NCBI GenBank assembly: GCA_041659325.1
Contig: JBAZYN010000001.1
Coordinates: 302,819 to 366,818, forward strand
Reading direction: 5' to 3'
Origin: Candidatus Shapirobacteria bacterium
GTDB lineage: Bacteria > Patescibacteriota > Microgenomatia > UBA12405
DNA: 64,000 nucleotides
Shown: positions 27,191-45,297 of the stretch, in pieces
Layout of the letters: every line of letters begins with the position of its first letter
Position numbering within the stretch: position 1 is the first letter of the stretch
Program-made: the position numbers and the translations under genes
The notes under the pieces: generated by a model
Database searches by the model: none
What the model was told of the DNA's origin: nothing
The model's input: the letters and a program-made list of their open reading frames with translations, nothing else

Positions 27191-27195
27191 CATCA

Positions 27196-28398
27196 ATGGC
27201 CATTCATAATCTTAAAGTCCTCATTATTTTTTTAGTAATAAATTTTTTGGTTCTCAAAATATATGCAAAGGCCAAAGGACCTAAATTTTACTTTAACCCA
27301 AAAACACCGTTCGTTGCTTTTTTTCTTTATTTAATATGTTTCCCGTTTTTTCAGGAAAAGACCAACATTTTCCGTTATCAATCCGTCGAAGAAAACCGCA
27401 AAAAAATTTCCCATCCTCTCGGTAATCCTATTGTTGAGCTTCTCAATACAAAAAATAATTACTCCTCCGCCTACGAAAAATATTTTAACGACAACTATGG
27501 CTTGCGGGATCTTTTTATTCGTCTCAAAAACCAAATCGATTACTCGGCGTTTGGAGTTTCCGATGAAATTATCATCGGTAAAAACCACTGGCTATTTTAC
27601 AAAAATGTCGTTGAACGGGAACAATTTTATCTTGAACAGCAAACCGAAGCTCAATTCGAAAATATTCAAAATAAAATTCTTTCACTAAATCAGTATTTCA
27701 AAAAGAGGGAAGTCCTCTTTGTAGTAATGCCTATTCCTATGAAAAACTCCGTCTATCCAGAACATTACACCAACCGCACCACCAATAGGCCATCGCCGAC
27801 CAAATTTGAAAGATTTATAACTTTTTTAAAATCACATCCGGAAGTAGCCTTTATTGACGCCCCTGCCATCTTGCAACAATACAAAAACCAATACCAATTG
27901 TTTCACAAAACAGACTTCCATTGGAATGACACTGCCGCCTTTCTCGTTTCCCAAGAAACTATCAGCTCTATTAACAAATGGACAAACCGTTCCGTCCGCT
28001 GGCAATACCCGCTCAAAACACAAAATGATACTGACTTTACCGGAGGCCAAACCAATTCTCTTGCTATCCTTATTTCCCCAAAAGAAAACATTTTACGAAT
28101 CAGTAACTCACCAAAAAGCGCTATCCCCGACCCAATCACACCTCTACCATTTCTATATTATTTTAAATCTCCGGTTTCTTCGCAAAACCTATTCCCAAAA
28201 ATGCTTTTGATCGGTAACTCTTACCTTCTTAATTTTCTCAACACAGGAATTTTTGATCATTTTAGCGAAACCCTGATCATCCATAGTAACGACATGCAAA
28301 AAATTCCGACTGCCGTTCCCAAAGACGTCAAAATTGTTATTTGGGAAATGATAGAAGTCGATCTTCTCAAAGAGTCTCTTTTTAAAATAAATTACTAA
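27196..28398 (+). CDS. AlgJ/AlgX/DHHW-family protein (periplasmic/extracytoplasmic O-acyltransferase partner of MBOAT)
   Basis: N-terminal TM. FHKTDFHWN is a DxHW-type motif characteristic of AlgX/AlgJ/DHHW partners. Lies immediately downstream of the MBOAT gene. Confidence 0.5.
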   Translation: MAIHNLKVLIIFLVINFLVLKIYAKAKGPKFYFNPKTPFVAFFLYLICFPFFQEKTNIFRYQSVEENRKKISHPLGNPIVELLNTKNNYSSAYEKYFNDNYGLRDLFIRLKNQIDYSAFGVSDEIIIGKNHWLFYKNVVEREQFYLEQQTEAQFENIQNKILSLNQYFKKREVLFVVMPIPMKNSVYPEHYTNRTTNRPSPTKFERFITFLKSHPEVAFIDAPAILQQYKNQYQLFHKTDFHWNDTAAFLVSQETISSINKWTNRSVRWQYPLKTQNDTDFTGGQTNSLAILISPKENILRISNSPKSAIPDPITPLPFLYYFKSPVSSQNLFPKMLLIGNSYLLNFLNTGIFDHFSETLIIHSNDMQKIPTAVPKDVKIVIWEMIEVDLLKESLFKINY

Positions 28399-28410: not shown

Positions 28411-30624
28411 TCATCTTTTCGGCAGTTTACCAATAACAGCCACATTCTCAATAACCTGAGGATTATCTAAGTCAAAATTATTTTTCCTCATCCTGGCCAA
28501 AATACACGTATCCCAGTTTTCAGCCTGTTGTCCATAATTTATTGAATAAAATCTAGCATCACCGATTTTATTCTTATCAAATAGCATTATTACTTTATCA
28601 ACTCCGTCCAACTCAACAGGATAATAAAATATCTCTTGTTTTAAAAATGGGTAGGCTAACGCTTCTGGTAAAGAAATCATATCATTTATACCGACACTGG
28701 ATTGAAACTTCATAAATTTATCAATTATACCTTTTCGGCTTAAGTACAAAGTTTCGTAACTCTTATATATTTTGTCAAAAACATAACTTGATTCACCGAT
28801 TTTATAATTATCGACATTAAATTTGGAAATGAAAACTAAATACCCAAATAAAAATAAGGTCAAAAATACTTTATTTTTAAATTTGATTAAAGATACGGAA
28901 TAAACAAACAGCCACAATGTAGGAACAAAATACGATATATGATAATGGGTAGACCATGCAAGTTTACCAATCTGTATCATTATATTTGGCATTAAAAAAA
29001 ATATCCAAGCAATAAAATTTTTCGGTTTAAACAAAATTATAAAACCGCTAAAAATTATATTAACTAAAATAAATATACCGGAAGAACGAGAGATAATTAC
29101 ATTATAGAGATTTACTACGATACTAATAATTCCCCCCGAAAACGTATTGTTTATTACACTATTTTGTGTTGAACCTGGTTCGGCAGTTTGTTTGATTATT
29201 GTAATCATAATCAAACTTATAATCAAAGAAAACAAACCGATAATTAATATTTTTTTATCTCTTTTAAATAAAAATAAATAAACCAAAAAAACCATAAATA
29301 ACGAAATACCATAAATCTCATTTGACGAAATCGCCAACAAAGAGAAGATAGAAATCAATAAATAGTTTAACTTTTTACGAGACAACAATAAGATGGTCAA
29401 AGAACAAAACAACAAAAAAAATCTATTAAAATAAAATTGTCCGTAAAAACCCTGCAACCAAAGAGGATGCTGCGATGCAATTAAAACCAATATTGCAGAA
29501 TTTAAACTATCCACCATGTACCTTCTCGCCGCCAAATAAACAAACAATAATACCGTTGAATAAATAATCGCCTGCGTTAAGGCTATAAACCAATAAATAT
29601 CAAAAAATCGAAGCAAAAATCCCAACGGAAAAGCAATTAGATAGAAATGACCCCAGGGGGGAAACTCTTTTGGGGTAATTAGCGAACGGCCACAAACATA
29701 TTCGGCACTTCTATACCAAACGTCGTTAAGTGAATAAGTAATAGACCTGGCATAACTACTTTCAAACCCCAAACCTTTACTGATATTCAACATTATCTGG
29801 GCTGCAAAAGTTGTATCCCCAAACTGAGATTGCATATTCCGATAAAATAATAACCTAGTAAGAATCAATGATATTAAGATATAAAACACTACCACGATAA
29901 ATACTTCATATTTTTTACAACACATAATCTCGATTTTGAAAAATAGCTCTCTAAGCTTTTTCAAATAGGCCGTGAATATTTTTGTACTCTTAAACGTAAA
30001 AAAAAATATATACAAGTAAATTACAACAAAGATTAATAAATAATTTACCAAGGAAACATTACCAAAAAAAGACCTTATTTTATTGAAAACAAATCCAATA
30101 ATTTCTTCTTTATGCTCCAATAAATATTCTTTTGGAAAACTATGCTTACTCAAAATTGAAGAACCTTTAGCCACCATTTGAACCGAGTTCCCGTTTACCC
30201 CATCCAAGGACTCTATTTCTATCTGATATTTTTTGTTTTTTGAATCTTTAATTCCAGGAAACCCAAAGGGAAAATATTGATTATTTTGGAATTGGTCAAC
30301 CTTATATTTATTGCTGTAATACCAATCACCACTACCTATTTCCTTTATCCTAAATTGTAAGTAATCATCGTTAATTCTTCCATGCGTGTCAAACTTGACT
30401 GCGACTATACCTAAATTATTATTTTTAGCCGCAAATTCCTCCGAAACCTTCACACCCTTAAGTAATTCTCTGTTTTGACTACCTACAAAATCATGGCCTT
30501 CAACAATCACTGTAAAATTGTAATCCTGAAATTCACTAACTTTCATAAAACCTATCCCTATCAACACTAACACCGCTAAACCCAAAACAATTGCCAATTT
30601 ACTTTTAAAATACATAATATTCAA
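28411..30624 (-). CDS. Very large polytopic membrane protein (737 aa), putative GT-C fold glycan transferase/polymerase (YfhO-like?)
   Basis: Signal/TM, then a ~190 aa extracytoplasmic domain, then more than 12 TM helices, then a C-terminal soluble domain. Confidence 0.3.
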   Translation of the reverse strand: MNIMYFKSKLAIVLGLAVLVLIGIGFMKVSEFQDYNFTVIVEGHDFVGSQNRELLKGVKVSEEFAAKNNNLGIVAVKFDTHGRINDDYLQFRIKEIGSGDWYYSNKYKVDQFQNNQYFPFGFPGIKDSKNKKYQIEIESLDGVNGNSVQMVAKGSSILSKHSFPKEYLLEHKEEIIGFVFNKIRSFFGNVSLVNYLLIFVVIYLYIFFFTFKSTKIFTAYLKKLRELFFKIEIMCCKKYEVFIVVVFYILISLILTRLLFYRNMQSQFGDTTFAAQIMLNISKGLGFESSYARSITYSLNDVWYRSAEYVCGRSLITPKEFPPWGHFYLIAFPLGFLLRFFDIYWFIALTQAIIYSTVLLFVYLAARRYMVDSLNSAILVLIASQHPLWLQGFYGQFYFNRFFLLFCSLTILLLSRKKLNYLLISIFSLLAISSNEIYGISLFMVFLVYLFLFKRDKKILIIGLFSLIISLIMITIIKQTAEPGSTQNSVINNTFSGGIISIVVNLYNVIISRSSGIFILVNIIFSGFIILFKPKNFIAWIFFLMPNIMIQIGKLAWSTHYHISYFVPTLWLFVYSVSLIKFKNKVFLTLFLFGYLVFISKFNVDNYKIGESSYVFDKIYKSYETLYLSRKGIIDKFMKFQSSVGINDMISLPEALAYPFLKQEIFYYPVELDGVDKVIMLFDKNKIGDARFYSINYGQQAENWDTCILARMRKNNFDLDNPQVIENVAVIGKLPKR

Positions 30625-31374
30625 CTATATTTTTTGAAGCACTACCGTTAAACCCAGTCCTATTGGCGGTCTTATATACTTTTCCACAAATTTTTGAAAG
30701 GGAACGACATAACTATCATAAAATTTCCCCTGATTCTTGACCAGATTAATCCCGGAACCCGAACCAAGAGTTATTTTTTTAAACTTAAAATATAATAAAG
30801 ACCCTAACACACCAATAAAATCCTGATACCAAATATCTACGACGTTAAATCTTTCTCTATTTATTAAACCCAACATATATTTTTTCGAGTATCTCCGGTA
30901 ATGACCCAAAAATTTATCGTGAGATGAATACAAAAAAGGTAAGGCAGGGACTTCAATTAAAATCATACCACCAGGTTTGAGAAGTTCATAAGCTTTTTCT
31001 ATGGCTTTAATATCTTCTTTAATATGTTCCAACACATGAATAAACAAAATCGTGTCAAAATGTCCGACTGTTTTATCCTTTAGCTTAAAGAGATCTTCCA
31101 TTTGAAAAGAGACATATTTAGGAAAAACGAATCTCTTCTGATGAAGCTTAAAAAGAGTTTTTGAAGGTTCTATCGAGACCAATCTTTTTATACCCCTCGC
31201 ATTTTTAACAATTTCGTTTGTAAACCCCTTTTCTCCACTTCCTACTTCTAAAATTTCCCTCCCGACATATTTACCAATTAGATCATATTGATATTTTCGG
31301 TAATTATTTAGTTCATAATCTTTCACTTTCTTAGTCCAATCCATACCACACACATAATTATCGTCTTTCTTCAT
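30625..31374 (-). CDS. Class I SAM-dependent methyltransferase
   Basis: ILEVGSGEKGFT motif I; ILFIHVLEHI; LKPGGMILIEVP. Confidence 0.55.
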   Translation of the reverse strand: MKKDDNYVCGMDWTKKVKDYELNNYRKYQYDLIGKYVGREILEVGSGEKGFTNEIVKNARGIKRLVSIEPSKTLFKLHQKRFVFPKYVSFQMEDLFKLKDKTVGHFDTILFIHVLEHIKEDIKAIEKAYELLKPGGMILIEVPALPFLYSSHDKFLGHYRRYSKKYMLGLINRERFNVVDIWYQDFIGVLGSLLYFKFKKITLGSGSGINLVKNQGKFYDSYVVPFQKFVEKYIRPPIGLGLTVVLQKI

Positions 31375-31375
31375 A

Positions 31376-32497
31376 TTATTTTTTTAAAGATACTAGTAAT
31401 TCAATAATTTTTTCGGCCGCGCTAATTGGTAGTCCTCCGTAAAATGGCAATGCTAACACTTCTTGTACTACACGATGGGCATTAGGTAAGTTCGTTGGGT
31501 TTGATGAAGGTAGGTTTTTATAATACGGGTATTGACTGCAAAGTGGAAAAAAATACTTCCTCGGATATATGTTATACGTCTTTAAAATTTCACTTACCTC
31601 ATCACGGGAACGCCCAAATACTCTTTTGTCAATTCTAATAACAAAATATTGGTAACTTTTTTTTACATTAGGCCGATCTTTCAGGTAGGTTATTCCTTCA
31701 ATTTTATCAAGATGGTTCTGATACATCCTGCTAATTAGCATTCTTTTTTTTCTTTCAGTATTTACTAGTGATAAAACTACAAGACCAAGCACGGCCTGAA
31801 TCTCATTCATCTTACCGTTGATTCCAGGAACAAGCACTTCTTCCCCGATTATCCCAAAATTTCTAAGCAAATCAATTTTTTCTTTTAACAATTCATCTTT
31901 ACAAATCAGAGTTCCACCTTCCCCTGTGTGGAACAATTTTGTCGGGTGAAAACTAAACATTGAAATATCCCCAAAATTCCCGATGCCCACACCATCGATT
32001 TCGGTTTCAAAAGCATGGGCAGCATCATATATTACTTTTAAACTACGATCGTTTGCTATCTTCTGGATTTTTTCTACATCACATGGCGTCCCAAAAACAT
32101 GAACAGGTAAAATAGCCGTGGTTTTCTTGGTAATATTTTTTTCTATTTGGTCAGAGTCAATATTCATTGTTAAAGGGTCAATATCACAAAATACAGGTTT
32201 AATATTGCACCAGGTCAAACAATTTGGGGTTGCCGGAAAAGTAAAAGGTGTAGTGACAACTTCCCCTTTAAGATCAAGACTCTTAATGGCCGTTAATAGA
32301 GCTATTGTACCGTTATTAAATATTGATACTTGGGGAACTTTAAGTATTTTTTTAATTTTCTTTTCTAAGGTTTGAAGTTGTATTCCATTATTTGACAACC
32401 ATTTACTTTTCCATACCTCTTTTAATTTTCCATTAAATGCCGCTAAGGGCGGAAAAAGAGGCCTTGTAATATAAATAGGTTTCTTAAACGGTTTCAT
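31376..32497 (-). CDS. DegT/DnrJ/EryC1/StrS-family PLP-dependent sugar aminotransferase
   Basis: FSFHPTKLFHTGEGG carries the Lys of the PLP site. 373 aa, aminotransferase-like. Confidence 0.7.
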   Translation of the reverse strand: MKPFKKPIYITRPLFPPLAAFNGKLKEVWKSKWLSNNGIQLQTLEKKIKKILKVPQVSIFNNGTIALLTAIKSLDLKGEVVTTPFTFPATPNCLTWCNIKPVFCDIDPLTMNIDSDQIEKNITKKTTAILPVHVFGTPCDVEKIQKIANDRSLKVIYDAAHAFETEIDGVGIGNFGDISMFSFHPTKLFHTGEGGTLICKDELLKEKIDLLRNFGIIGEEVLVPGINGKMNEIQAVLGLVVLSLVNTERKKRMLISRMYQNHLDKIEGITYLKDRPNVKKSYQYFVIRIDKRVFGRSRDEVSEILKTYNIYPRKYFFPLCSQYPYYKNLPSSNPTNLPNAHRVVQEVLALPFYGGLPISAAEKIIELLVSLKK

Positions 32498-33432
32498 AGG
32501 TATTTCTTCCTAATGACATAATTTGGTTTCTTTCGAAGCTCACTATAAATACGCCATGTATATTCACCTATCACCCCCAGCATAATCATTATCAAGCCTC
32601 CCACAAATAAAATCGCCACCATAATCGGTGCCCACCCCGTAAAAGGTGTTTTACCGACAAACCAAGCGTAAATAATGGTTAACCCATATATAACCCCGAC
32701 AATAGAAGTGATAATGCCAGACAAAGAAATAAAACGGATGGGAAGATAAGAGGCGTCAAGAAAAGCATCCAAGAAATTTTTTAACTTTTTTGAGAAATTG
32801 TATTGCGATTTACCAATCGTTCGTTTCAGTCGAGTATAGGGGATAAAGCATGTTCGATAGCCAGTCCACAACAAATCTCCCTGAAAAGACCTATTCCGAA
32901 TATCTATTGTATTGTATTCATCCAATGGTTTTCGATCTATAAGGACATAGTCAAATCCACCTATAGGTAACTGAGGAAAAGAGAGCTTTAAAGCTCCATA
33001 TGCCAAACGGGAAAAAAATTTAGCCGCAAAAGTATCTGAACGACCCACCCGGTAACAAGCAACTATCTCTGACCCTTTCCTCCAACTTTTAATCATTTTC
33101 GGAATCATCTCCACCGGGTCCTGCATATCCGCCGAAATGTTAATGACCGCATCACCACTAGCCTCTTTTAACCCTGCGAGAATAGCTGCCATTTGACCAA
33201 AATTTCTGGTAAATGATATAGCTTTTACCCGTGAGTCTTCTTTTCTTACATTAAATATTTCTTTCAGCGAATCATCATCTGAACCATCATCAACAAAGAT
33301 AATTTCGTATTCATAACCCGCTAATGATTTTGCAAAAACTGATTTAATTTTCTCATATGTTTTGCAAATAGATCCCTCGTTGCGATATACGGCAATAACT
33401 AATGAAATTTTCATTGTTCTATCCTTTTTCAC
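32494..33432 (-). CDS. GT2 polyprenyl-phosphate sugar synthase (GtrB/ArnC/DPM-like) with two C-terminal TM helices
   Basis: ISLVIAVYRNEGSI ... IIFVDDGSDDDS ... ISADMQDP (DxD). C-terminal double TM. Confidence 0.65.
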   Translation of the reverse strand: MKKDRTMKISLVIAVYRNEGSICKTYEKIKSVFAKSLAGYEYEIIFVDDGSDDDSLKEIFNVRKEDSRVKAISFTRNFGQMAAILAGLKEASGDAVINISADMQDPVEMIPKMIKSWRKGSEIVACYRVGRSDTFAAKFFSRLAYGALKLSFPQLPIGGFDYVLIDRKPLDEYNTIDIRNRSFQGDLLWTGYRTCFIPYTRLKRTIGKSQYNFSKKLKNFLDAFLDASYLPIRFISLSGIITSIVGVIYGLTIIYAWFVGKTPFTGWAPIMVAILFVGGLIMIMLGVIGEYTWRIYSELRKKPNYVIRKKYL

Positions 33433-34159
33433 AAAGTAAAAAAATACTGGAACACAAATCCGGATACTGTTGACCTAGTTGATAACAGCCCTCTAGATAT
33501 TCCAATGAAATAATATCTGTTTTCAATAATCTATCCCATTGAAAATTGGCTAAAGCCTTAAAAAAAATACCAGAGCGATAAACCACTTTCAGCCCAGCAG
33601 TTTTTACATCTCGCTCGAGAGTGTCAAAAGTATAAGATATTTTATGCCCATGTTCCGATTCACTTTGGGTAATCGCCGTGTTATGACTTATTAGACCCAT
33701 TTTTACCGCAATTTGTCTTGAAGGAGCATTGGCATTAGGACAGACCAAAAATAGCCTCCCTCTGTCAGATAGCCATTTACTATTTATTTTTTTCAATAAG
33801 TCAACCGGAATGTCGATGTGTTCTAAAACGTGGGTTAATATAACATTATCATATTTTACCGGCAAATCAACAGTTTCAAAAAGCGAATTATATACGATTA
33901 CCTTTCCCCGTAACTTTCTTTCGGCTTCAGAAACTGCTTCATCTGAAGCTTCCACACAGGTAATATCGGTAAAATATGGAAGAAGTCTTTTAGTGAAATC
34001 ACCCTTAAAACTCCCTAGTTCGAGTACGTTACCTTTATTGAAAAAGGGGATAAATGATTTCAACATAAAAGAATGCATGACATCAAAATCAAAACTATAT
34101 ACATATTTATGACTTGGTGTATTTTTAAGCTCTTTATTATAGTCTCTTACCTTATTCAT
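33419..34159 (-). CDS. Class I SAM-dependent methyltransferase
   Basis: VLELGSFKGDFT motif I; VILTHVLEHI. Confidence 0.5.
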   Translation of the reverse strand: MNKVRDYNKELKNTPSHKYVYSFDFDVMHSFMLKSFIPFFNKGNVLELGSFKGDFTKRLLPYFTDITCVEASDEAVSEAERKLRGKVIVYNSLFETVDLPVKYDNVILTHVLEHIDIPVDLLKKINSKWLSDRGRLFLVCPNANAPSRQIAVKMGLISHNTAITQSESEHGHKISYTFDTLERDVKTAGLKVVYRSGIFFKALANFQWDRLLKTDIISLEYLEGCYQLGQQYPDLCSSIFLLCEKG

Positions 34160-34167
34160 TTTATTTA

Positions 34168-34623
34168 TTAAATATTGTCTAATGTTACCATCATCTTCAA
34201 TGAGTCGTCTTCAGTATCATACTGTCTAAAATTAAACTTTTTATACAAACTAATCGCCAAACTATTGTGTTTATTTACTTCCAACAATATTTTACAAAAC
34301 TTATTCTCTTTTACGTATTCGATACATCTTAATAATAACCCGGAGGCAATTCCTTGACCCATATACTCTCTTATTACACTCACATTTGTGATATATGCTA
34401 AATGGTTAATCTTGTCATTGATATAAGCGGCCACACACCCCACCAAAACTTTACCTGACCACGCCTCAAATCTAATTGCTTTTGCAAATAATTTTTTTGA
34501 ATACTTTTCGATATTAACTGTTTTGGATAACGAAGGGACAAAATCACCATCACATTTGACCAAATGTGAATATATCTCTTTTTCGGAAGCGGTATTAATT
34601 TCATATCTTATATTATTAGCCAT
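34168..34623 (-). CDS. GNAT-family N-acetyltransferase
   Basis: 151 aa. ITNVSVIREYMGQGIASGLL is GNAT motif A (Q/RxxGxG/A). Confidence 0.6.
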   Translation of the reverse strand: MANNIRYEINTASEKEIYSHLVKCDGDFVPSLSKTVNIEKYSKKLFAKAIRFEAWSGKVLVGCVAAYINDKINHLAYITNVSVIREYMGQGIASGLLLRCIEYVKENKFCKILLEVNKHNSLAISLYKKFNFRQYDTEDDSLKMMVTLDNI

Positions 34624-34629
34624 ATTGAA

Positions 34630-35583
34630 TTACTCCTCAAGCACAGCCATACCAAATCCACATCGTCCAAATTCATTCCCGTTATATAACAAATATATTT
34701 TGTCCCCACTTCGAAAAACATGTGGATAACACAACATGTCGCTATCCCAACCATTTCTTGAAACTTCAATACCAACTTTACTGTCATCTCTGATCCAATT
34801 GGTCAAATCCTGTGAAAAAGCATATCCAAGTCGATACCCCCTGTCTTTGTTTTCTCTAAAACCAATCGCCTCTCTATAACAAAACAACATATGGTACTGA
34901 TCATCAAAATTAATAATTGTCGGAAGTGCCTGACATTCCTGTAAATTTAATTTGTCAGGGATTAATTGCCTGCCCTCTTTTTGCCAACGAAAACCATCCT
35001 CAGAAGTTGCGTGACCAATTTTATAAATACGTTGCGGTTCTTTACCCTCTGTCTCTTTCAGCCATTTAATACCATAGATGTACCACATATGATATTTATT
35101 ATTATAGATTTGAACAAAAGGATCGCCTACCAAAAAAGGTTCATGTTGCGATGAGGTCAACACTGGACCGTCTCCTACTCTTTTAAAAGTCAGACCGTCA
35201 TCATCACTTATGGCCAAACCAATAGAAGTTTCAACTGATACAGACACCCTCCTGCTCCACCCACCGATATACCCCAATATCTTATTTTTTGTCCTTAAAA
35301 TATTTAGAGGAAAAATACCATGTTCATCAAAACAGCCTAAATTCCCAAGTTTAATTACTGTTTTTTTTGACACATTAATAATATTTGTAAAATTTTTGTC
35401 AAAATCAATAAATGAAATATGGCTCAAAAATTTACCGGTCTTGTCCTTTTCCCTAGTCGAAAAATAAATCCTCACAAAATCATCAAACAATAAAGTTTGT
35501 GGTGACTGAGCAAACTCAACACAATTATTTAATAATTTATGATCGCGGGGATCAAATATCTTCCCCAATTTTTTCCATTTCAT
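34630..35583 (-). CDS. Five-bladed beta-propeller glycosidase/phosphorylase-like protein (GH130/DUF377-like; GH43/GH32 clan also possible), paralog A
   Basis: 317 aa. About 40% identical by eye to the adjacent ORF. C-terminal ...YLLYNGNEFGRCGFGMAVLEE. Confidence 0.35.
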   Translation of the reverse strand: MKWKKLGKIFDPRDHKLLNNCVEFAQSPQTLLFDDFVRIYFSTREKDKTGKFLSHISFIDFDKNFTNIINVSKKTVIKLGNLGCFDEHGIFPLNILRTKNKILGYIGGWSRRVSVSVETSIGLAISDDDGLTFKRVGDGPVLTSSQHEPFLVGDPFVQIYNNKYHMWYIYGIKWLKETEGKEPQRIYKIGHATSEDGFRWQKEGRQLIPDKLNLQECQALPTIINFDDQYHMLFCYREAIGFRENKDRGYRLGYAFSQDLTNWIRDDSKVGIEVSRNGWDSDMLCYPHVFRSGDKIYLLYNGNEFGRCGFGMAVLEE

Positions 35584-35589
35584 ATATTT

Positions 35590-36549
35590 TTACACTTTAT
35601 ATGACTGAAGCTCTGCTAACCCAAAACCAAACCTCCCGACTTGATTTCCAAGATATAACATAAAAAGATTACCATCTAGTTCAAATACGTGGGGATAAGC
35701 AATTGACTCATCGTCCCATCCTTTTTTTGAAATGTCTATACCGACTTTGGTATCATCTCGGACCCAATCGACAAGATTATCAGAAAATGCATATCCAATG
35801 CGGTAACCTCTCCTATCACGATAATCTGTACTATACCTATAACAAAAAAACATGTGGTACTTACCTTTATAAAAAATTACATCCGGGCTAGCTTGAGCTT
35901 CATTCTCTTCCAATTTCACTTTAATTAGATCTTTGCCATGCTTCTTCCAGGTCGCTCCGTCCTTTGAAAATGCCACTCGAATTTTATACACTGGCTCTGG
36001 CTTACCGTTATCTAATATCCATTTCTTACCGGCAATATACCACAAGCACCACATATTATTATACTTTTTTATTTTTGGACCACTTATGATGTACGGTTCG
36101 TCAAGATCAAAAGATAATATCGGTCCCGGACCAAGCTTTTCAAACGTTATCCCATCGTCATAACTTATTGCTTTTCCAATAGCTACATTAAACGGCACCG
36201 ATTCACATCTTGTATAACCAGCATAATAAGCTATTATTTTTTTTCCGTCTTTTATCACCGACACCGGATAAGTTCCAAATTCATCAAAAGTACCCGTTTC
36301 TCCTAATTTTAAAATTGGTCTTTGGGATATATCAATTATTTTAAATAGATTATGCCGACTTAAATCAACATAACCGGTATAACTCACATACTGTCCATTT
36401 TCATCTCTAGGAGGTCTACAAGAAAAGTAAACTCTCACAAATTTTTCAAATATTAAAGTAGCCGGCGCTTGGGCAAATTCATGCATCCAATCCAAACCTT
36501 TATACTCTGTCGGATCAAAAACCTTCCCTAATTTTTTCCATTTAAACAT
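35590..36549 (-). CDS. Five-bladed beta-propeller glycosidase/phosphorylase-like protein, paralog B
   Basis: 319 aa tandem paralog: MFKWKKLGKVFDP..., and a GYRIGYAFS..LV.WVRDD block shared with paralog A. Confidence 0.35.
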   Translation of the reverse strand: MFKWKKLGKVFDPTEYKGLDWMHEFAQAPATLIFEKFVRVYFSCRPPRDENGQYVSYTGYVDLSRHNLFKIIDISQRPILKLGETGTFDEFGTYPVSVIKDGKKIIAYYAGYTRCESVPFNVAIGKAISYDDGITFEKLGPGPILSFDLDEPYIISGPKIKKYNNMWCLWYIAGKKWILDNGKPEPVYKIRVAFSKDGATWKKHGKDLIKVKLEENEAQASPDVIFYKGKYHMFFCYRYSTDYRDRRGYRIGYAFSDNLVDWVRDDTKVGIDISKKGWDDESIAYPHVFELDGNLFMLYLGNQVGRFGFGLAELQSYKV

Positions 36550-36565
36550 TTTCTGAGTTCACTTT

Positions 36566-37270
36566 TTACTGTAACGTAAAGTTAGAATTTAAATATTTCT
36601 TTATTTCCTCTATGGAATTAAACATCATCACATCGACAATTGATAAAAACGGAATATATTCATTCTCAAACTGCTTATAACTAAAATTACTTGTTTTTAT
36701 AAAATGTAAATCTATACCTTGTTTTTTAAATTCCTCTTTATTATATAACTCAACTCCCCCAATCGGATTTATATATATATTAGCTTTCCTAGCTTTACAA
36801 ATTGCTAATACTTTTTCTGCCGACTTAAGAGTATGATCAATCTCTACGCTAGAAGACACGATAAAAGTAGTCTTTATCTCTAAATACTCTTTTATTTTTA
36901 TCAGGGAATTATAAATAAATAGAAATAAGTTCTTTTCTTCAAACAAAACACAATTTTCTATTAACGGATACACCATTTCAAAATATGGTGCTTTTCGATA
37001 AGACTCTTTTATCCTATTTAAGAGCTTACTTTTATCCGTCACCCAAGTATCTGCCAAAAACCTGTCTTTCACATCAGAAGTATCAGGGTCTTTTCTTAGT
37101 GGAATTGTAATGTAGGAGTCCTTCCCATTTACCAAAATTCTATTACGATTAATCCATCCTTTTTTTGTATATTTGATATTATCGTAAACCACAAACTCAT
37201 CGACCGCATTGATTAACTGAAAATATCCTATATAAGGAAAGAAATATGGTTGCATAATACCTACTTTCAT
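36566..37270 (-). CDS. WbqC-like family protein (O-antigen-cluster-associated, function unknown)
   Basis: MKVGIMQPYFFPYIGYFQLINAVDEFVVYDN is the signature N-terminus of the WbqC-like family. Confidence 0.6.
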   Translation of the reverse strand: MKVGIMQPYFFPYIGYFQLINAVDEFVVYDNIKYTKKGWINRNRILVNGKDSYITIPLRKDPDTSDVKDRFLADTWVTDKSKLLNRIKESYRKAPYFEMVYPLIENCVLFEEKNLFLFIYNSLIKIKEYLEIKTTFIVSSSVEIDHTLKSAEKVLAICKARKANIYINPIGGVELYNKEEFKKQGIDLHFIKTSNFSYKQFENEYIPFLSIVDVMMFNSIEEIKKYLNSNFTLQ

Positions 37271-37470: not shown

Positions 37471-38430
37471 TCATTTAATTACCTCAGGTTGCTTTACAAC
37501 AATAACGATCAGATTATCCCCCTCATCCTTATCACTCAAATATACCTTTGTCTCGGATAATATTTTTCTATAATTTACTTTCATCCCTCTCATCAGCCAT
37601 TCACTCCCCAATCTGGCAACAAGGTCTTGTAATTTCGAGCTACTCCTAATCAATGAATAAACAAAAAATCTTATTTTCCCAAATAAGTTACTAGCCGGCT
37701 TCACCCTATTAGTAGAATCGACCATTAGTCTTCGATTCATTTTGTTATATGACTGCCAAATCTCATATGTCCCGAATGCCTTAACTTTTTCAAATAGTTT
37801 TCTAATTTCGTCATGATAATATTCATGTTCGTGAGGAAGAACAAATCTATATTTTCTTTTGTCATCTTTGTTAATTGCAAATAAATCCTGACAAAATTTT
37901 CTATTCGGTGTCCCGATCACCGCCACCCCACCTTCCTTCAAAACTCTGGATACTTCTTCTAAATAAAACTCAGCCTTATCTTTTGGAATATGCTCAATCA
38001 CATGCGAAGATACAACAAAATCAAAACATTTATCAGGAAAGGGTAAAATAGGACCTTGATATTGAACATATTGTACCCCTTTTTTCCCATATTGCTTTCT
38101 GGCAAAATCTATACAGGATTCTGAATAATCTACTCCGTAATAACTATAATTTTTTTGTACAGTATCTTTTACAAAAGAAATATTTCTGCCAGTACCACAT
38201 CCAAGATCCAACACAAAAGCATTGTCTTTTTTAGACCGTTCAATAATCCCTTTAAAAACAAGATATACAGGAACCGAGTTGGCATAATGTGTCAGAGGTA
38301 TTCGGTTTTCACCCGCACCCTCTTTTGCTACACCTAATGGAATCTGACCATAAGGATTTTTCTCCCCCCAGTCAATAAACTGTTTGCCTGATTTCCCTAA
38401 TTCAATTATTTTATGATCCTTTACTTTCAT
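37471..38430 (-). CDS. Class I SAM-dependent methyltransferase
   Basis: VLDLGCGTGRN motif I; VVSSHVIEHI; LKEGGVAVIGTP. Confidence 0.6.
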   Translation of the reverse strand: MKVKDHKIIELGKSGKQFIDWGEKNPYGQIPLGVAKEGAGENRIPLTHYANSVPVYLVFKGIIERSKKDNAFVLDLGCGTGRNISFVKDTVQKNYSYYGVDYSESCIDFARKQYGKKGVQYVQYQGPILPFPDKCFDFVVSSHVIEHIPKDKAEFYLEEVSRVLKEGGVAVIGTPNRKFCQDLFAINKDDKRKYRFVLPHEHEYYHDEIRKLFEKVKAFGTYEIWQSYNKMNRRLMVDSTNRVKPASNLFGKIRFFVYSLIRSSSKLQDLVARLGSEWLMRGMKVNYRKILSETKVYLSDKDEGDNLIVIVVKQPEVIK

Positions 38431-38924
38431 AATTGACCAACAAATGATAAATTTGAAATTTTTATATATTCCGTCACCACCACATTCTTTATATTATTGG
38501 GAACATAAATTATTAGTTCGCTAGGAATAGTCGGAATACTACTTAAAAATTTGATCATCGCCCCGATGTTATAAGTTTTTATCCCCGGCAAATAACCATA
38601 CTTTTTTGACAAAAAGAAAAAATATGTCATCATTCTCTTGTTGTCCAACGCCAGAGCCATATCAGCCATCTGGTTGTGTAGAATTACCCGCCCAAGCTTT
38701 TCTGATTCACTAAGCTTTAATATTTCCAGTTCACACAAAACCTTTATTCCCACGGCAAAATCCATTCTAGCCAAAAGCGGCAAAAATGGTAGATTGTTAA
38801 TCATTAGTTTTAATTTACTCATTAAATTTAATCCCAAAAAACGACTCAATATTATCCCCACCTGAGATCTGCTTGTCATTTCCCTGGCAATCAACGCCAC
38901 ATCTGGTACTATTTTTTCATTCAT
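38427..38924 (-). CDS. Hypothetical protein (165 aa), translationally coupled within operon
   Basis: ATGA and 8-bp overlaps with the flanking genes. No motif recognised. Confidence 0.3.
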   Translation of the reverse strand: MNEKIVPDVALIAREMTSRSQVGIILSRFLGLNLMSKLKLMINNLPFLPLLARMDFAVGIKVLCELEILKLSESEKLGRVILHNQMADMALALDNKRMMTYFFFLSKKYGYLPGIKTYNIGAMIKFLSSIPTIPSELIIYVPNNIKNVVVTEYIKISNLSFVGQL

Positions 38925-40824
38925 AGGATTTGTGAATAATTGATTCCGTATTTATCGCAAACTCCAAATCACTAATTAACAATTTTTTGTCATTATTTCT
39001 CACAGCCTTGACAAACAAACTATTTTCTATTGCGTACGCCTCTCCGTTTGCGTCTGGGTTAATATTAAAAACAACTGACTCCATGATTGGTTTCAGGTCA
39101 GATTCTTTTTTTACTTCGCCTTTTCCGTCGCCAACAACCCACAACACTCTACCGTCAGTTTTTATTTCTCCTCGCTCAAATTCTATTATTAATTTACTTT
39201 CGGCGATCCATTTTCCCGGTACTGACCAAGATAAATTGGCTTCGCCCTTGAAAACTCCATAATCCAAAATTACTCTGGCCTCATCGTCAACCTCCTCCGA
39301 ATAGATTTTTTTGACTTGTGCATTTACAATTTTTGGCACACCAAAAAGAAAGTTTACTATAGAAAATAAATGTGGCCCGGGATTCATCAGCACTCCTCCT
39401 CCTGACTTGGCCTTTTCAAACATCCAACCTTTTTTTGGAGAAAGCACCTCACCATGCTCATAACTTATCAAAAATTTCTTTACTTTTCCCAATTTTTCAC
39501 TGTCAACAATTCTTTTTATCTCTTTGTAAACTCTGGTATGTACCAGGGTATAACCTACCGATATAATCTTGTTGTATTTTTTTTCCAACATTCTTAATTT
39601 TTTCAACTCCCCAACGTTAAGCGCTGCCGGTTTTTCCACAAACACGTTAACTCCTTTTGACAAACATTTTTCTATTAACTTCACATGTGTAAACGTTGGA
39701 GTTAAAACCCAGACCATATCTAATCTTTCTTGCTTTAATGCCTCGTCAATATCCTGATAATAATTCCCCTCAATTCCCATACTTTGAATCGTCTTAAATA
39801 ACTTTGGATTGTTATCAACTAAGGCTAGAATTTTGACTTCTTCAAATGTTTTTAAAATAGACAAATGCAATAAACCCATTTTCCCCAGACCAACCACTCC
39901 AACCTTTAATTTATTATCACCAAAAACTATTGCCAAACCCTCCTTTATCCCAACCGTCTTTATCCCGGATTCGCGAATAATCGGCCGGGAGTCACATATG
40001 ATTTCTTGTGTTGACCCCAGTACATTGTCAATATAAAAAGGGGGATTTTTCATCTTTAAAAACTCAAACACTCTACCGGCCACAATTCCCACCCATACGG
40101 GGATGTGCAATAAGGTTACCTTCTTTCCCTTGTGGCTCATTAACAGCTTGTAAAAATAATTATAACTAATTGGTTTTACCGATCCTGCATCGTATATTTT
40201 GCCATCACCATTGGCAAAGAGCCATTCAACATATTTACACAAGTCTTTCACATAAACCGAATACACCTGAGTTTCACCATCACCAAACACAGGAACCACA
40301 GGCAAAGAAGACATTAACTTCATTATTTTCCCCACCAACCCCTTTTCCCCCTCGCCATACACCAAACTTGGCCTTAAAATTGAATATTTTATTCCGGATC
40401 TTTTTACAATTTCATCTGCCAATAGCTTCGTTTTTGAATACACCCCTTTTCTTTTTATTTTTGTTGCCTGGGTACTAAAGTGAATCAGCTTTGCTATCTG
40501 TCTTTCTTTTCCCGCCTTTATGATATTTTCTAAACCTTTTACATTTACTTCATAGCTCAAGGTCGGATGATAGCCATTTACTGCCAAATTAACCACAATG
40601 CTTTTTTGGGGAATTGCTTTTTTTAAAGAACCCAAATCCAAAACATCCGCATAATCCACCTTTAGAGATCCTTTTAAGTCAAACCCGGGGAGAGATCCTC
40701 GTCTGATCAACGCCACCACCTCGTAACCGCTACCGGCCAAGTAATTAACTAAATGCTGGCCGATAAAACCATTGGCCCCTATTACACAAATTTTACTTTT
40801 TATCACAGTTATAAATTCTAGCAA
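38917..40824 (-). CDS. Fusion protein: N-terminal NAD-dependent epimerase/dehydratase (SDR) plus C-terminal Gfo/Idh/MocA-family oxidoreductase
   Basis: N-terminal VIGANGFIGQHLVNYL is an SDR Rossmann motif. From about residue 310, KVGVVGLGKMGLLHLSIL is the Gfo/Idh/MocA N-terminal Rossmann motif, followed by an EKP motif (VFVEKP). 635 aa. Confidence 0.6.
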   Translation of the reverse strand: MLEFITVIKSKICVIGANGFIGQHLVNYLAGSGYEVVALIRRGSLPGFDLKGSLKVDYADVLDLGSLKKAIPQKSIVVNLAVNGYHPTLSYEVNVKGLENIIKAGKERQIAKLIHFSTQATKIKRKGVYSKTKLLADEIVKRSGIKYSILRPSLVYGEGEKGLVGKIMKLMSSLPVVPVFGDGETQVYSVYVKDLCKYVEWLFANGDGKIYDAGSVKPISYNYFYKLLMSHKGKKVTLLHIPVWVGIVAGRVFEFLKMKNPPFYIDNVLGSTQEIICDSRPIIRESGIKTVGIKEGLAIVFGDNKLKVGVVGLGKMGLLHLSILKTFEEVKILALVDNNPKLFKTIQSMGIEGNYYQDIDEALKQERLDMVWVLTPTFTHVKLIEKCLSKGVNVFVEKPAALNVGELKKLRMLEKKYNKIISVGYTLVHTRVYKEIKRIVDSEKLGKVKKFLISYEHGEVLSPKKGWMFEKAKSGGGVLMNPGPHLFSIVNFLFGVPKIVNAQVKKIYSEEVDDEARVILDYGVFKGEANLSWSVPGKWIAESKLIIEFERGEIKTDGRVLWVVGDGKGEVKKESDLKPIMESVVFNINPDANGEAYAIENSLFVKAVRNNDKKLLISDLEFAINTESIIHKSYE

Positions 40825-40847: not shown

Positions 40848-41183
40848 CTAGAACCTTTTCCGACCTATTGCTAACTTTCTCACTAATTTCTCCAACTGCT
40901 CCTCATATTTTTTCATTTTTACATTATTTTCAAAAGTTAAATATGCCAAAATCATAAACGCCACAATTACCGCCAAATCCATTACCCTCACTATAAAAAG
41001 TTCTCTTATCAACGGTTCTAAAAGCTGTGGAAACAATGCAAAAAAAGAAAACATAAGCCAAATCAGTGCCCAGGAACCAAACATCCGGTTTGAAATATTT
41101 CTCTTTTTCCAATGCAGCAACAGCACATACATCATAAAAAAAGCAAAACCAAGCAAAACTAATTGAACACCGATTATATTCAT
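40848..41183 (-). CDS. DUF2304-like small membrane protein (GT2-associated)
   Basis: 111 aa, 3-4 TM helices, charged C-terminal coiled segment. Lies immediately downstream of a soluble GT2, as is typical for DUF2304. Confidence 0.45.
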   Translation of the reverse strand: MNIIGVQLVLLGFAFFMMYVLLLHWKKRNISNRMFGSWALIWLMFSFFALFPQLLEPLIRELFIVRVMDLAVIVAFMILAYLTFENNVKMKKYEEQLEKLVRKLAIGRKRF

Positions 41184-41208
41184 AAGTTAGTTATCAAGTT
41201 ATAACTTT

Positions 41209-41880
41209 CTACTTTCTCACATACCAAAAGGGGATATTAAAAAGAATTTTTAACGCATCTAGAATCGTAACCCCTTTGTATTTATCAATGTAGATTGTAT
41301 CAACATTTATTTCAGAAAATGGTATCTTATTTTTTCCCACCCGAGTCGCCATTTCCGTCTCTATCCCGTATCGGGGTGACTGCCACAAAATCTTTTCATA
41401 AACCTCTTTTTTCATTCCTAAAAACCCACACAATAAATCTTTTCTTTTGATATTAAACAAAAACTCGACCAACTTTAAAGCTATAATATTTCCGTATTTT
41501 CTGATAAAGGGCATCTTGCTGTTAAAACTACGATAACCAAAAACCAACTCGTTTGCCCGCAACGATTTTTCAAAATCCGACAGATGCGCTGGATTGTGTT
41601 GACCATCGGCGTCAATATAGATTATTGCTTCTGCCCCCAATTGCCAGGCTTTCTCCGCTCCGGTTTTCATCGCCGCCCCTTTCCCCAAATTAATCACATG
41701 ACGAAGTAGTGTGACCCTCTTTTTATTAGAATAATTTTTTTTCAACAAACTCCATGAATTATCAACGGATCCATCGTCTACCACTACCAAATTTTGCTCT
41801 GATAATTTCAGAATTTCTTTGATTGTGTTAACCGCCCTCTGCCCCTCATTATAAACCGGAACAATTATCGCTATTTTCAT
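41209..41880 (-). CDS. GT2 polyprenyl-phosphate glycosyltransferase-like (DPM1/ArnC-like, soluble)
   Basis: IAIIVPVYNEGQRA ... VVVDDGSVDNS ... IDADGQH (DxD). 223 aa. Confidence 0.6.
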   Translation of the reverse strand: MKIAIIVPVYNEGQRAVNTIKEILKLSEQNLVVVDDGSVDNSWSLLKKNYSNKKRVTLLRHVINLGKGAAMKTGAEKAWQLGAEAIIYIDADGQHNPAHLSDFEKSLRANELVFGYRSFNSKMPFIRKYGNIIALKLVEFLFNIKRKDLLCGFLGMKKEVYEKILWQSPRYGIETEMATRVGKNKIPFSEINVDTIYIDKYKGVTILDALKILFNIPFWYVRK

Positions 41881-43701: not shown

Positions 43702-45297
43702 CTAAAACTCCATCATCTTTTGGCCAAATATCTCCTGCCATTTTTCTTGGTTGAATTTTACTAAACCTATTTCCCTGTCATTCATCAAATCAGAAAAACA
43801 TTTTTTATCGCTAAATTGCAAACATCCATATATTTTATCTTCTAAATCAAATAAATTTTGGGGCTGATAACTACCATAACCATTGTAAAGATAACAACCG
43901 TGATACAAAGACGACAAGTGTATCCGAGTTAGATAATCAATTCCGGCGATTGCTCCACCCGAATAGCCAAAATGAGTCACGGGTATCTCGAGAAGCACCT
44001 TTTTTTCTGCTTGGCATACTTCTTTTATTTCTTCATACCCAGTTTTATAATCTCTTGCTTCCGATGCAAAAAATGGTAGTGATTCGGCCAGGAATATAAC
44101 TACCAAAATCAACCAGACACGACTGCTCTTGATTTTTTTCAATCCTTCAAGGGCAAAAAATGTCAGTCCAAAATATAATAGAAAATTCCACCTGGCCATG
44201 GCTCGAATCGAATCAGCGAAAGGAAAATACCGCCCAATTAGCACATACAGAGTTGGTACTCCGTAAACCCTCGTCCCCAACGAATTTACCAATCCCAAAA
44301 TCATTATTATCAAAAAAAATAATCGCTTTTTATCAAAGACGAAATTTATCTTTATTTTTTTATTCAGGGCAATCTTTACCAGTCCCGCCAACGCCAGCAA
44401 AGACAGAACTATACCGGGAAATTTCCCTTTCTCTCCCTGAACATGCAAATCAAAAGAATTCCATCTTTTCGTTATCGATGTTTTACCAAATATGGTTGGG
44501 GAATCGGTTGTAAAAAAATAGTCTGTTAAATGGGCCGCATACATTTCATATTCCGCCCGGTTTCGGACAAAGCCATACATATTTTTCATGCCTATATATC
44601 CACCGATAAATACCCCATCAAGCATCAAAAATACTAAGACTACTATCAAAAAGTCCTTAACTTTCCCATGTTTCAGCAGCGCCGAAATCGCCAGAGCTAC
44701 AAGTAAGTACACCACCAAATATACTGATGCCAAAAATTGAACCGCCAAAGCTACCCCAACCAGCACCCTCTTGTCTTTAAACCAAAAGTACAATGCCAAG
44801 AAAAACGGCCAGAATGAAAGCATTTGCGGATGGTTTTGTTGCAAAACCAAAAATGGCCCAAATATAAAAAAAATAGCTCCCAAAAATGCCAAAATATGTG
44901 TTTTAAAAATCAGCTTCCAAAAAATAAACAAAGACCAGTAATTTAAAATGAGTGTCAAAAGCAATACTAAATTAAAAACTAAAATTGGATTGTTTGTAAA
45001 AAAAGTTAAAGGTAAAGCAGTTAATGACTGGGGGATCAGTAAATCAGAAAAGAACAACGATAATTTATTTGGATAAAAAGCGTTCGTTTCAAAAAATTCG
45101 GTGACATTTCCGCTTTTGATATGCCCGATATTCTGAAACATTACCCATATCAGATACGGAGGATCGGACCAACTGACCAGATTAGTACCTATATGAATTA
45201 TCAAATCCCAATAACTAGCCGTTAATAGTCCCAAAAATACCAAAAAAAACCCAAAACTATTTATCGATCCCAACCTTTGGGATGACCTTTGTACCAT
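43702..45297 (-). CDS. GT-C-type polytopic membrane glycosyltransferase (ArnT/PMT-like)
   Basis: 531 aa. At least 10 TM helices, with loops in the N-terminal third. Confidence 0.4.
   Translation of the reverse strand: MVQRSSQRLGSINSFGFFLVFLGLLTASYWDLIIHIGTNLVSWSDPPYLIWVMFQNIGHIKSGNVTEFFETNAFYPNKLSLFFSDLLIPQSLTALPLTFFTNNPILVFNLVLLLTLILNYWSLFIFWKLIFKTHILAFLGAIFFIFGPFLVLQQNHPQMLSFWPFFLALYFWFKDKRVLVGVALAVQFLASVYLVVYLLVALAISALLKHGKVKDFLIVVLVFLMLDGVFIGGYIGMKNMYGFVRNRAEYEMYAAHLTDYFFTTDSPTIFGKTSITKRWNSFDLHVQGEKGKFPGIVLSLLALAGLVKIALNKKIKINFVFDKKRLFFLIIMILGLVNSLGTRVYGVPTLYVLIGRYFPFADSIRAMARWNFLLYFGLTFFALEGLKKIKSSRVWLILVVIFLAESLPFFASEARDYKTGYEEIKEVCQAEKKVLLEIPVTHFGYSGGAIAGIDYLTRIHLSSLYHGCYLYNGYGSYQPQNLFDLEDKIYGCLQFSDKKCFSDLMNDREIGLVKFNQEKWQEIFGQKMMEF

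Follow-up and report, generated by a model that had tools for sequence, protein, structure and literature searches.

Why two adjacent genes for glycosidase-like beta-propeller proteins should stand in an operon of glycan biosynthesis is the question raised by the stretch of DNA examined here (the window: 64,000 nucleotides of a Candidatus Shapirobacteria contig, JBAZYN010000001.1). The two proteins, termed PropB and PropA in the order of their genes, are best explained as an uncharacterised family of the five-bladed glycosidase/phosphorylase superfamily, with glycoside hydrolase family 130 (GH130) as nearest known relative, and they constitute an ancient, fixed B-then-A set inside a mobile cassette. 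Our reading, to which as a whole statement we give a probability of roughly 0.4, is that they form a cytoplasmic hetero-oligomer acting on an activated 4-amino-4,6-dideoxyhexose by transfer chemistry similar to that of GH130 and of the glycosyltransferase family GT108. Taken separately, it is rather probable that the pair is an obligate catalytic component of the cassette acting on an activated amino sugar; the specific reaction class (GH130/GT108-type) is put forward tentatively.

The propeller pair, its family and its distribution

The PropB and PropA open reading frames (ORFs) are separated by 6 nt, and their products align over the full length with 45% identity and 69% positives (BLASTP, E = 7e-108), which bears out the original prediction of adjacent paralogs of about 318 residues. 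The three shared motif blocks that it had listed were all located in both proteins, namely M(F)KWKKLGK(V/I)FDP at the N-terminus, RGYR(I/L)GYAFS..(D/N)W(V/I)RDD, and GR(F/C)GFG(L/M)A(E/V)L at the C-terminus. As also predicted, inspection of the two translations revealed no signal-peptide-like hydrophobic N-terminus; residues 2-11 of PropB form a beta-strand in the AlphaFold model which, read from the strand order, would close the last blade. PropA and PropB are cytoplasmic proteins within a biosynthetic operon. Their flanking genes had been read as GNAT and WbqC-like, and matches to PF00583 and PF08889 agree with this (scores in Table 1). The glycan-biosynthetic setting was likewise recovered, the whole window being an island for glycan assembly that encodes at least 15 glycosyltransferases as well as a pyruvyl transferase, radical S-adenosylmethionine (SAM) enzymes and an MBOAT/AlgX pair. 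A database entry (P0001) that is 100% identical to the window protein is labelled 'glycosylase'. A scan for promoters and terminators was not above chance (43 sites, 48.6 expected).

The AlphaFold (AF2) model of PropB (predicted local distance difference test, pLDDT, 85.8; predicted template modelling score, pTM, 0.89) has a strand layout that fits a five-bladed propeller. Searched against the PDB with Foldseek, it matched exclusively members of the five-bladed glycosidase/phosphorylase superfamily, with GH137 BT_0996, GH32, GH130, GH43 and GH117 at the top (template modelling score, TM, 0.55-0.69; 10-18% identity). The GH130 structures 7fip and 9fj8 reached TM 0.66-0.70 to the PropB model, the GH137 structure 5mt2 a TM-score relative to the query (TMq) of 0.68, and GH32, GH43 and GH117 a TMq of 0.55-0.64; a GT108 structure was absent among the 50 best matches. 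The structurally solved relatives of the propellers are related at a remote level only. By sequence, the nearest solved protein is the GH130 beta-1,2-mannobiose phosphorylase 7fip. Model and search agree with the predicted five-bladed propeller for PropB, and PropA, given its 45% full-length identity, would have the same fold.

Regarding the family assignment by hidden Markov models, GH130 (PF04041) gave 20.5 bits with PropA (cut-off 26) and no match with PropB, the NCBIfam model for beta-1,2-mannobiose phosphorylase 44-45 bits (far below its cut-off of 450), and GH43 (PF04616) 16.2 bits (cut-off 32.2). GH32 (PF00251) exceeded its cut-off of 22.1 bits with both PropB (31.3 bits) and PropA (22.7 bits), but only positions 15-89 of the 307 profile positions were matched, i.e., a blade fragment of 75 positions. 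The original description as GH130-like proteins thus stands with respect to the best solved sequence relative, but not at the PF04041 and NCBIfam thresholds. As to its alternative of a GH43/GH32-type fold, the PropB model falls into the superfamily that includes both families, but the GH43 score is below threshold, the GH32 match, though above its cut-off, is a fragment, and the catalytic sets of both families are not conserved (see below). PropA also scored 17 bits with GINT1_N (PF24793), under the cut-off of 27; PF24793, to which many propeller orthologs have a precomputed match, is a related family of the same superfamily. The propeller family comprises more than 6000 matches in a 90%-identity collection and 879 clusters at 50% identity (E <= 1e-30). 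We define it here as the WbqC-associated propeller family, i.e., proteins of about 310-325 aa with the invariant residue set given below that are encoded beside DegT, GNAT and methyltransferase genes; PropA and PropB fit this definition. No propeller homolog was found in phage genomes.

A scan of species-representative genomes gave 80 loci with PropB orthologs at 64-71% identity. They belong to at least 12 phyla, covering Patescibacteria, Bacteroidota, Ignavibacteria, Gamma-, Beta-, Alpha- and Zetaproteobacteria, Desulfobacterota, Myxococcota, Chloroflexota, Planctomycetota, Verrucomicrobiota, Nitrospirota, Omnitrophota and Acidobacteriota. With the window proteins as tblastn queries, the order DegT, WbqC, PropB, PropA, GNAT, MT1 (a SAM methyltransferase) was found on one strand in nearly all loci. 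Unbiased clustering of all ORFs over 82 loci recovered WbqC in 79, the propellers in 78 (150 copies), DegT in 72, MT1 in 70 and GNAT in 55. In each of the 68 pairs that could be scored, PropB and PropA were separated by -1 to 22 nt. Across orthologs, the identity was 72% among PropB and 66% among PropA proteins, whereas it was 45% between the two groups; the conservation of the propellers (66-72% across phyla) exceeds that of DegT and GNAT. PropA and PropB co-evolve, with a correlation of their distance matrices (r = 0.90) that is the highest in the cassette; for WbqC versus PropA or PropB, r was 0.85-0.86. PropA-GNAT fusion proteins of about 470 aa were found as well (P0252, P0265, P0301).

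The cassette is also present on megaplasmids of Rhizobium leguminosarum and on a plasmid of Tateyamaria. The flagellin glycosylation island of Dickeya zeae WH1, a seven-gene island located between fliA and fliC, contains it too (PMC9650423), and Pectobacterium atrosepticum SCRI1043 has such an island as well. Cultivable carriers of the cassette include Mucilaginibacter flavidus, Flavobacterium fructosi and Methylomonas. On plasmid pRlvE of R. leguminosarum UPM791 (L082), an IS3 transposase separates DegT from a WbqC that is truncated (annotated with about 130 aa), and this copy is probably inactivated. An Enterobacterales metagenome-assembled genome (MAG; L071, 7287-11120) carries WbqC, PropB, PropA, GNAT and MT1, with no DegT or glycosyltransferase within 8 kb; a phage-type integrase, SrfB/virulence-factor genes and a hybrid two-component system lie in the flanks of these genes. 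A MAG of the Gammaproteobacteria (L002) contains the entire nine-gene block of the window from WbqC to a 737-aa membrane protein (28411-37270) at 62-76% protein identity, and the G+C content of this block is 31-36%, compared with 40-42% at the window edges. The shared block and its lower G+C content indicate inter-phylum horizontal transfer into this genome of the Candidate Phyla Radiation (CPR).

A third propeller subgroup, mostly from Acidobacteria-type contigs, is single-copy (L084-L089), although L089 has two propellers. Its cassette encodes an acyl carrier protein, a ketoreductase, an AMP-ligase, a left-handed beta-helix (LbH) acyltransferase, a UbiE-like methyltransferase, the propeller, a RimL-type (Acetyltransf_3) GNAT and DegT. 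Near these propellers, WbqC was found in one of six sampled contexts and a Fem/CelD-like Acetyltransf_6 protein in four of the six. The recurring theme is a propeller together with a methyltransferase, a GNAT, a DegT and a candidate aminoacyl-adding enzyme. The representative-library search also matched giant tandem-propeller proteins, namely P0241 (5844 aa, 34 matched stretches, the best score of the whole search at E = 1e-178) and P0343 (1935 aa, nine stretches, a GH130 match at 162 bits).

Active-site positions and the comparison with GH130

The catalytic Asp and Glu residues of GH32, GH43 and GH130 sit at x-P positions of the inner strands. An 'x-P' motif is present on every inner strand of PropB as deduced from the model (Table 1). 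Invariant throughout the family are D89, [ED]90, [ED]151, D266, D279, R39, R45, R238, R264 and Y285-P286. Fixed differences between PropB and PropA lie on the x-P motifs of blades I-IV (B/A: A28/S27, F91/H88, Y94/F91, G157/D154, K159/F156, S221/L220, D223/T222), and all of 75 orthologs have D154 of PropA. As the family core is retained in PropB and PropA alike, both look catalytically competent, yet their putative active sites differ systematically. The original prediction had hinged on retention of candidate catalytic Asp and Glu residues, and invariant ones are kept in the alignments.

The features of GH130 are a proton-donor Asp (D104 in Uhgb_MP numbering, within 'EDP'), the phosphate-binding residues R168 and H231, no catalytic base and no signal peptide (PMC7660257). 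Like the GH130 phosphorylases (Teth514_1789, 7fip; Teth514_1788, 9fj8; Uhgb_MS), the propellers are cytoplasmic proteins of about 300 aa without a signal peptide, five-bladed according to the PropB model and, via its 45% identity, probably in PropA too, and they share with them the lack of a blade-I catalytic base. Alignments of the propellers to 7fip with HMMER and hhalign, however, fell into three different blade registers. A forced global hhalign profile alignment (probability 98.7%, 28% identity, 223 columns) covered four blades with a shift of one blade, and when five rotations were scored against 7fip the unshifted register was never picked. The Foldseek alignment to GH130, by contrast, was full length (343 columns, 16% identity). 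The one-blade shift could reflect a circular permutation or mere similarity among internal repeats.

In the +1 register, the counterpart of the GH130 'E-D-P-R' is S-G-P-K for PropB and G-D-x-F for PropA, a complementary pattern in which the Asp is kept by PropA (D154) and the basic residue by PropB, which has G157 at the Asp position. In register 0, as judged by anchoring on motifs, the proton-donor position would be occupied by Tyr (PropB) or Phe (PropA). The single-copy subgroup has Ser, Thr or Gly at the proton-donor position. Regarding the phosphate-binding pair, R238 aligns with the Arg in the +1 register, itself ambiguous, and the His position is Leu in PropB and Asn in PropA. Mapping onto GH130 residue by residue was tried and yielded no firm catalytic assignment owing to the conflicting blade registers. 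Because the single-copy subgroup is without the Asp, the phosphate pair is incomplete and the registers are mixed, GH130 membership of PropA and PropB is not established.

The catalytic set of GH32 consists of an Asp (NDPNG), an Asp (RDP) and a Glu (EC), accompanied by a C-terminal beta-sandwich domain; that of GH43 consists of an Asp (blade I), an Asp (blade III) and a Glu (blade IV). The GH32 set is lacking in PropB and PropA, which have S221 and L220, respectively, where the nucleophile Asp is expected and are single-propeller proteins. A near-identical 'IFxKGKYHMF' stretch is shared with the GH32 invertase of Thermotoga maritima, from which the propellers differ in having no C-terminal domain; the GH32-matched stretch begins directly after the nucleophile-motif position, with blade IV aligning to blade I of GH32. 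With blades assigned from the PropB model, the GH43 set is lacking too: blade I (AQ-A/S-P) is without Asp, the Asp of blade III is found in PropA alone, and blade IV (A-S/L-P) is without Glu at -2. None of the canonical GH32, GH43 and GH130 sets is conserved in any consistent register.

The proposed cassette pathway and role of the propellers

All three cassette-linked DegT variants are closest to DesI (E 1e-56 to 1e-60, at least 10 orders of magnitude ahead of the next match), the C4 aminotransferase of dTDP-4-keto-6-deoxyglucose; hence the cassette sugar would be a 4-amino-4,6-dideoxyhexose. The idea of a missing 3,4-ketoisomerase, suggested by FdtA/QdtA near the Tateyamaria cassette, was rejected, as the DegT types are DesI-like and FdtA occurs in one of 83 loci. 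The gene in the slot that follows PropA is exchangeable: in most loci it is a GNAT (the closest NCBIfam models to that of the window are RimI and the streptothricin and arsinothricin acetyltransferases), a RimL-type GNAT in two others (L013, 9969-13070; L026, 9966-10526), the former additionally carrying a thiolase and a 3-hydroxyacyl-CoA dehydrogenase, and a formyltransferase with a B12/radical-SAM enzyme in L004 (10047-12070). In L034 (6117-7756) and L065, a 3-hydroxybutyryl-CoA dehydrogenase lies between WbqC and PropB, in L034 together with an extra methyltransferase. This exchangeability points to a single decorated sugar with acetyl, formyl and 3-hydroxybutyryl variants. That the propellers supply the acyl group was rejected, since the slot is filled by self-sufficient alternative modules.

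GNAT-MT1 fusions of about 400 aa occur in four loci (L068, L078, L079, L080). MT1 ranks as the best conserved member of the cassette. A structure of an MT1 ortholog is available as PDB 2p7h/2p7i (E = 7e-117), deposited as 'hypothetical protein'. A family 2 glycosyltransferase (GT2) follows MT1 in most loci and is either of a soluble type or GtrB/ArnC-like with GtrA; orthologs of the window GT2 do so in 18 loci, often with GtrA. The window GT2 is presumed to be the polyprenyl-phosphate sugar transferase for the cassette product. As the cassette usually has a GT2 of its own, the propellers need not be the transferase, and the possibility that they are the sole glycosyltransferase is weakened.

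The AF2 model of WbqC (pLDDT 89.9) shows a Rossmann/HUP fold; its best and sole strong Foldseek match in the PDB was BshC (4wbd, probability 0.99, TMq 0.43), followed by weak matches to catalytic domains of class-I aminoacyl-tRNA synthetases. PF08889 (WbqC) is listed as uncharacterised. Our hypothesis, which draws on the model and extends to the whole WbqC family, is that WbqC may act as an amino-acid (or carboxylate):amino-sugar ligase. It would resemble BshC in acting on an amino-sugar amine, BshC adding cysteine to the amine of glucosaminyl-malate in bacillithiol synthesis, but it differs in length (234 versus 540 aa), in the lack of the BshC C-terminal domain and in a TMq of just 0.43. The WbqC family takes its name from the Escherichia coli O121 cluster. 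N-acetylglycine in E. coli O121 is amide-linked to Qui4N. The presence of N-acetylglycine in the O121 O antigen has been reported (PMC7685785). At the DNA level, blastn with an Enterobacterales copy of the cassette gave no match in E. coli O121 (wbq cluster). Genes for GT4 and LmbE have also been found together with WbqC, beside a dedicated prolyl-tRNA synthetase and tRNA (PMC10404621), an association that mirrors the BshA/BshB/BshC logic.

Among known systems, the viosamine island of Pseudomonas syringae is similar in being mobile and in combining C4 amination, N-acylation, O-methylation and transfer of a 4-amino-4,6-dideoxyglucose to a surface glycan (flagellin), and its 3-hydroxybutyryl route has a parallel among the acyl modules of the cassette. 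It produces dTDP-N-(3-hydroxybutyryl)-2-O-methyl-viosamine with vioA, vioB, vioM, vioR, vioS, acp and vioT alone and, unlike the cassette, has neither WbqC nor propellers (PMC3927599), so that WbqC, PropB and PropA would add a further step. The comparison isolates one step, an addition to or a change on N-acyl-O-methyl-viosamine. From GH130 the propellers differ in their context, which is nucleotide-amino-sugar tailoring and not mannoside catabolism, and in forming a fixed heterologous pair. As a precedent, GH130 beta-1,2 phosphorylases have a weak NDP-sugar (nucleoside-diphosphate-sugar) transferase activity with GDP-mannose, and their oligomer interface shapes the nucleotide/phosphate site (PMC12814180). 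That a GH130-like propeller can serve in biosynthesis as a glycosyltransferase has a conceptual precedent in GT108, the mannogen mannosyltransferases/phosphorylases of Leishmania (PMC12814180, PMC10913872), in which an Arg switches between transferase-only and phosphorylase activity (PMC12814180); GT108 differs in being eukaryotic and in making a storage beta-1,2-mannan rather than decorating an amino sugar.

In the pathway proposed for this 'decorated viosamine' cassette, the DesI-like aminotransferase would make an NDP-4-amino-4,6-dideoxyhexose; WbqC, as a ligase similar to BshC and the aminoacyl-tRNA synthetases, and PropB/PropA would perform one or more extra steps, with the propellers acting between the WbqC step and N-acyl capping; the exchangeable module would cap an amine with an acetyl, formyl or 3-hydroxybutyryl group; the SAM methyltransferase would methylate the product; and the dedicated GT2 would deliver the sugar to O-antigen, capsule or flagellin glycan, while in the CPR bacterium a lipid carrier would bring it to a wall polymer. 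The pair would bind the anionic activated sugar on its Arg- and carboxylate-rich face (D89, E90, E151, D266, D279, R39, R45, R238, R264) and carry out an inverting glycosyl transfer assisted by phosphate or nucleotide, in biosynthesis or remodelling and not in polysaccharide degradation. The paralogs may contribute different catalytic residues, e.g., D154 from PropA and K159 and D223 from PropB.

Several points weigh against this reading. The propeller scores fall below the GH130 and GH43 thresholds; the residue mapping onto GH130 is register-ambiguous; the proton-donor Asp is matched by PropA alone and in the +1 register alone; and no more than half of the Arg/His pair is conserved. The cassette has its own Leloir GT2 and no second-sugar pathway, which leaves no obvious glycosidic bond for the propellers to make or break, and the heteromer is inferred from genomics only. 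The accessible literature holds no biochemical or genetic study of any member of the propeller family; reports on WbqC, on GT108/GH130 in O-antigen synthesis, on DUF377 in glycosylation islands and on BshC or N-acetylglycyl groups included no functional study of it. The fold is already known, whereas the family and the cassette are without functional description in this literature.

Of the other explanations, the leading one dispenses with glycosidic chemistry: the propellers would be sugar-nucleotide-binding partners of WbqC or Fem-like enzymes that build an N-(acyl-aminoacyl) substituent on the 4-amino group, and could hold the acceptor for condensation, alter the aminoacyl-sugar by epimerising, cyclising or editing it, or hand it over to the fused or adjacent GNAT. 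This fits the position of WbqC immediately upstream and its co-evolution with both propellers, its BshC- and synthetase-like fold, the presence of WbqC or Acetyltransf_6 in five of the six single-copy contexts, the PropA-GNAT fusions, a GNAT whose closest models acetylate amino-acid amines, the N-acetylglycine of O121 (PMC7685785), and the lack of a second sugar pathway; but no DNA-level match to the cassette was found in O121 by blastn. Such a role is nonetheless unlikely when the superfamily and the ligases are considered. To our knowledge, every characterised member of the fold superfamily transfers glycosyl groups, with water, phosphate or a sugar as the acceptor, no propeller that transfers acyl groups or forms amides is known, and BshC, MshC and the Fem enzymes work without a propeller partner. 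A further proposal, itself less likely than not, is that the propeller heterodimer and the BshC-like ligase make up a new nucleotide-sugar tailoring system that installs on 4-amino-4,6-dideoxyhexoses a substituent for which no known pathway accounts; aminoacyl and similar groups are candidates, as is a glycosyl group added by a non-Leloir route.

The glycosidase fold, the abundant invariant carboxylates and database labels such as 'glycosylase' and 'predicted GH43/DUF377 glycosyl hydrolase' would suit true hydrolases or phosphorylases that serve in trimming or quality control, perhaps by removing a transient sugar or protecting group, by hydrolysing NDP-sugar intermediates that have reached a dead end, or by freeing sugar from the nucleotide for re-activation. 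We regard this as improbable, since the blade I base/nucleophile Asp and the blade IV acid of GH32/GH43 are absent, the proteins are cytoplasmic and their genes lie in a tight operon with those of biosynthetic enzymes, no transferase for a transient sugar was conserved in the cassette among the 82 clustered loci, and two conserved, co-evolving paralogs are hard to square with simple proofreading. It is more improbable still that they are non-catalytic, lectin-like scaffolds organising the pathway enzymes into a complex: the missing canonical catalytic sets and the GNAT fusions are compatible with scaffolding, whereas a conservation above that of the enzymes DegT and GNAT, an invariant charged cluster at positions typical of active sites, and A and B signatures that are fixed and differ at exactly such positions speak for catalysis. 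Finally, the adjacency of the paralogs and their generic glycosidase-family matches would be expected of a recent local tandem duplication of an ordinary catabolic GH130 or GH43 gene that landed in the operon by chance; this has next to no probability, because the two groups are conserved separately, in the same B-then-A order, in about 78 loci from at least 12 phyla and differ far more from each other (45% identity) than within themselves (66-72%), which rules out a local tandem duplication as the origin of the pair.

Three of the five invariant core genes (WbqC, PropB, PropA) are without a known reaction, which is an annotation gap in one of the most conserved and widely transferred glycan-decoration modules seen, its propellers and MT1 being 65-75% identical across CPR, Bacteroidota, Proteobacteria, Chloroflexota and others. 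The loci include O-antigen and capsule clusters, rhizobial symbiosis-related megaplasmids and flagellin glycosylation islands of soft-rot pathogens, so the product is likely a surface epitope of importance for recognition by phages, hosts and the immune system. If true, the new tailoring system would mean an unrecognised sugar modification on O-antigens, capsules, flagellins and CPR surfaces in more than a dozen phyla, and the propellers would found a new family of CAZy or amide-forming type. Surveys of CAZymes, those of CPR genomes above all, should not count the propellers as degradative GH43, GH32 or GH130.

Features of the window and neighbouring genes

Table 1. Propeller, cassette and block genes in the window (positions in nucleotides), and inner strands of PropB (positions in residues).
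Feature	Position	Strand	Characteristics
PropB	35590-36549	(-)	Complete ORF, 319 aa; predicted five-bladed beta-propeller (model); B-type signature DEFGTYP / SGPK / EAQASPD
PropB inner strand, blade I	residues 24-33		Deduced from model strands
PropB inner strand, blade II	residues 93-101		Deduced from model strands
PropB inner strand, blade III	residues 153-163		Deduced from model strands
PropB inner strand, blade IV	residues 218-227		Deduced from model strands
PropB inner strand, blade V	residues 284-291		Deduced from model strands
PropA	34630-35583	(-)	Complete ORF, 317 aa; putative propeller by homology to the PropB model; A-type signature DEHGIFP / GDxF / ECQALPT
WbqC-family protein	36566-37270	(-)	PF08889, 232.6 bits; first gene of the conserved core, immediately upstream of PropB
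GNAT N-acetyltransferase	34168-34623	(-)	PF00583, 53.9 bits; variable N-acyl slot
MT1, class I SAM methyltransferase	33419-34159	(-)	PF13489, PF08242
GT2 with C-terminal membrane region, GtrB/ArnC/CsbB-like	32494-33432	(-)	PF00535; hydrophobic C-terminus in translation
DegT aminotransferase, DesI-like	31376-32497	(-)	PF01041, 313 bits; best PDB match 2po3 (DesI), E = 5e-60
MT2, second class I SAM methyltransferase	30625-31374	(-)	Part of the nine-gene block
737-aa polytopic membrane protein	28411-30624	(-)	No Pfam family

MT2 is conserved along with the block in L002 and L013 (71% identity). The 737-aa membrane protein, which has a 62% identical ortholog at the same position in L002, is a candidate, by analogy, for an extracytoplasmic (GT-C/YfhO-like) transferase that would complete the route from the membrane-anchored GT2. 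From the arrangement of GT2, DegT, MT2 and the 737-aa protein we infer a route that leads via a lipid carrier to a polymer outside the cytoplasm.

Four large proteins (471-737 aa) of the window are without a Pfam family (28411-30624, 23988-25772, 43702-45297 and 54112-55527). Upstream of the cassette, a 635-aa fusion protein (38917-40824, (-) strand) combines an N-terminal short-chain dehydrogenase/reductase (SDR) epimerase/dehydratase with a GFO/IDH/MocA oxidoreductase, and is followed by a methyltransferase (37471-38430) and a 165-aa ORF without a family. A short GT2 and a DUF2304 membrane protein form a pair at 40848-41880 ((-) strand), and the MBOAT and AlgX-like SGNH pair, of the glycan O-acylation type, is located at 25787-28398 on the (+) strand.

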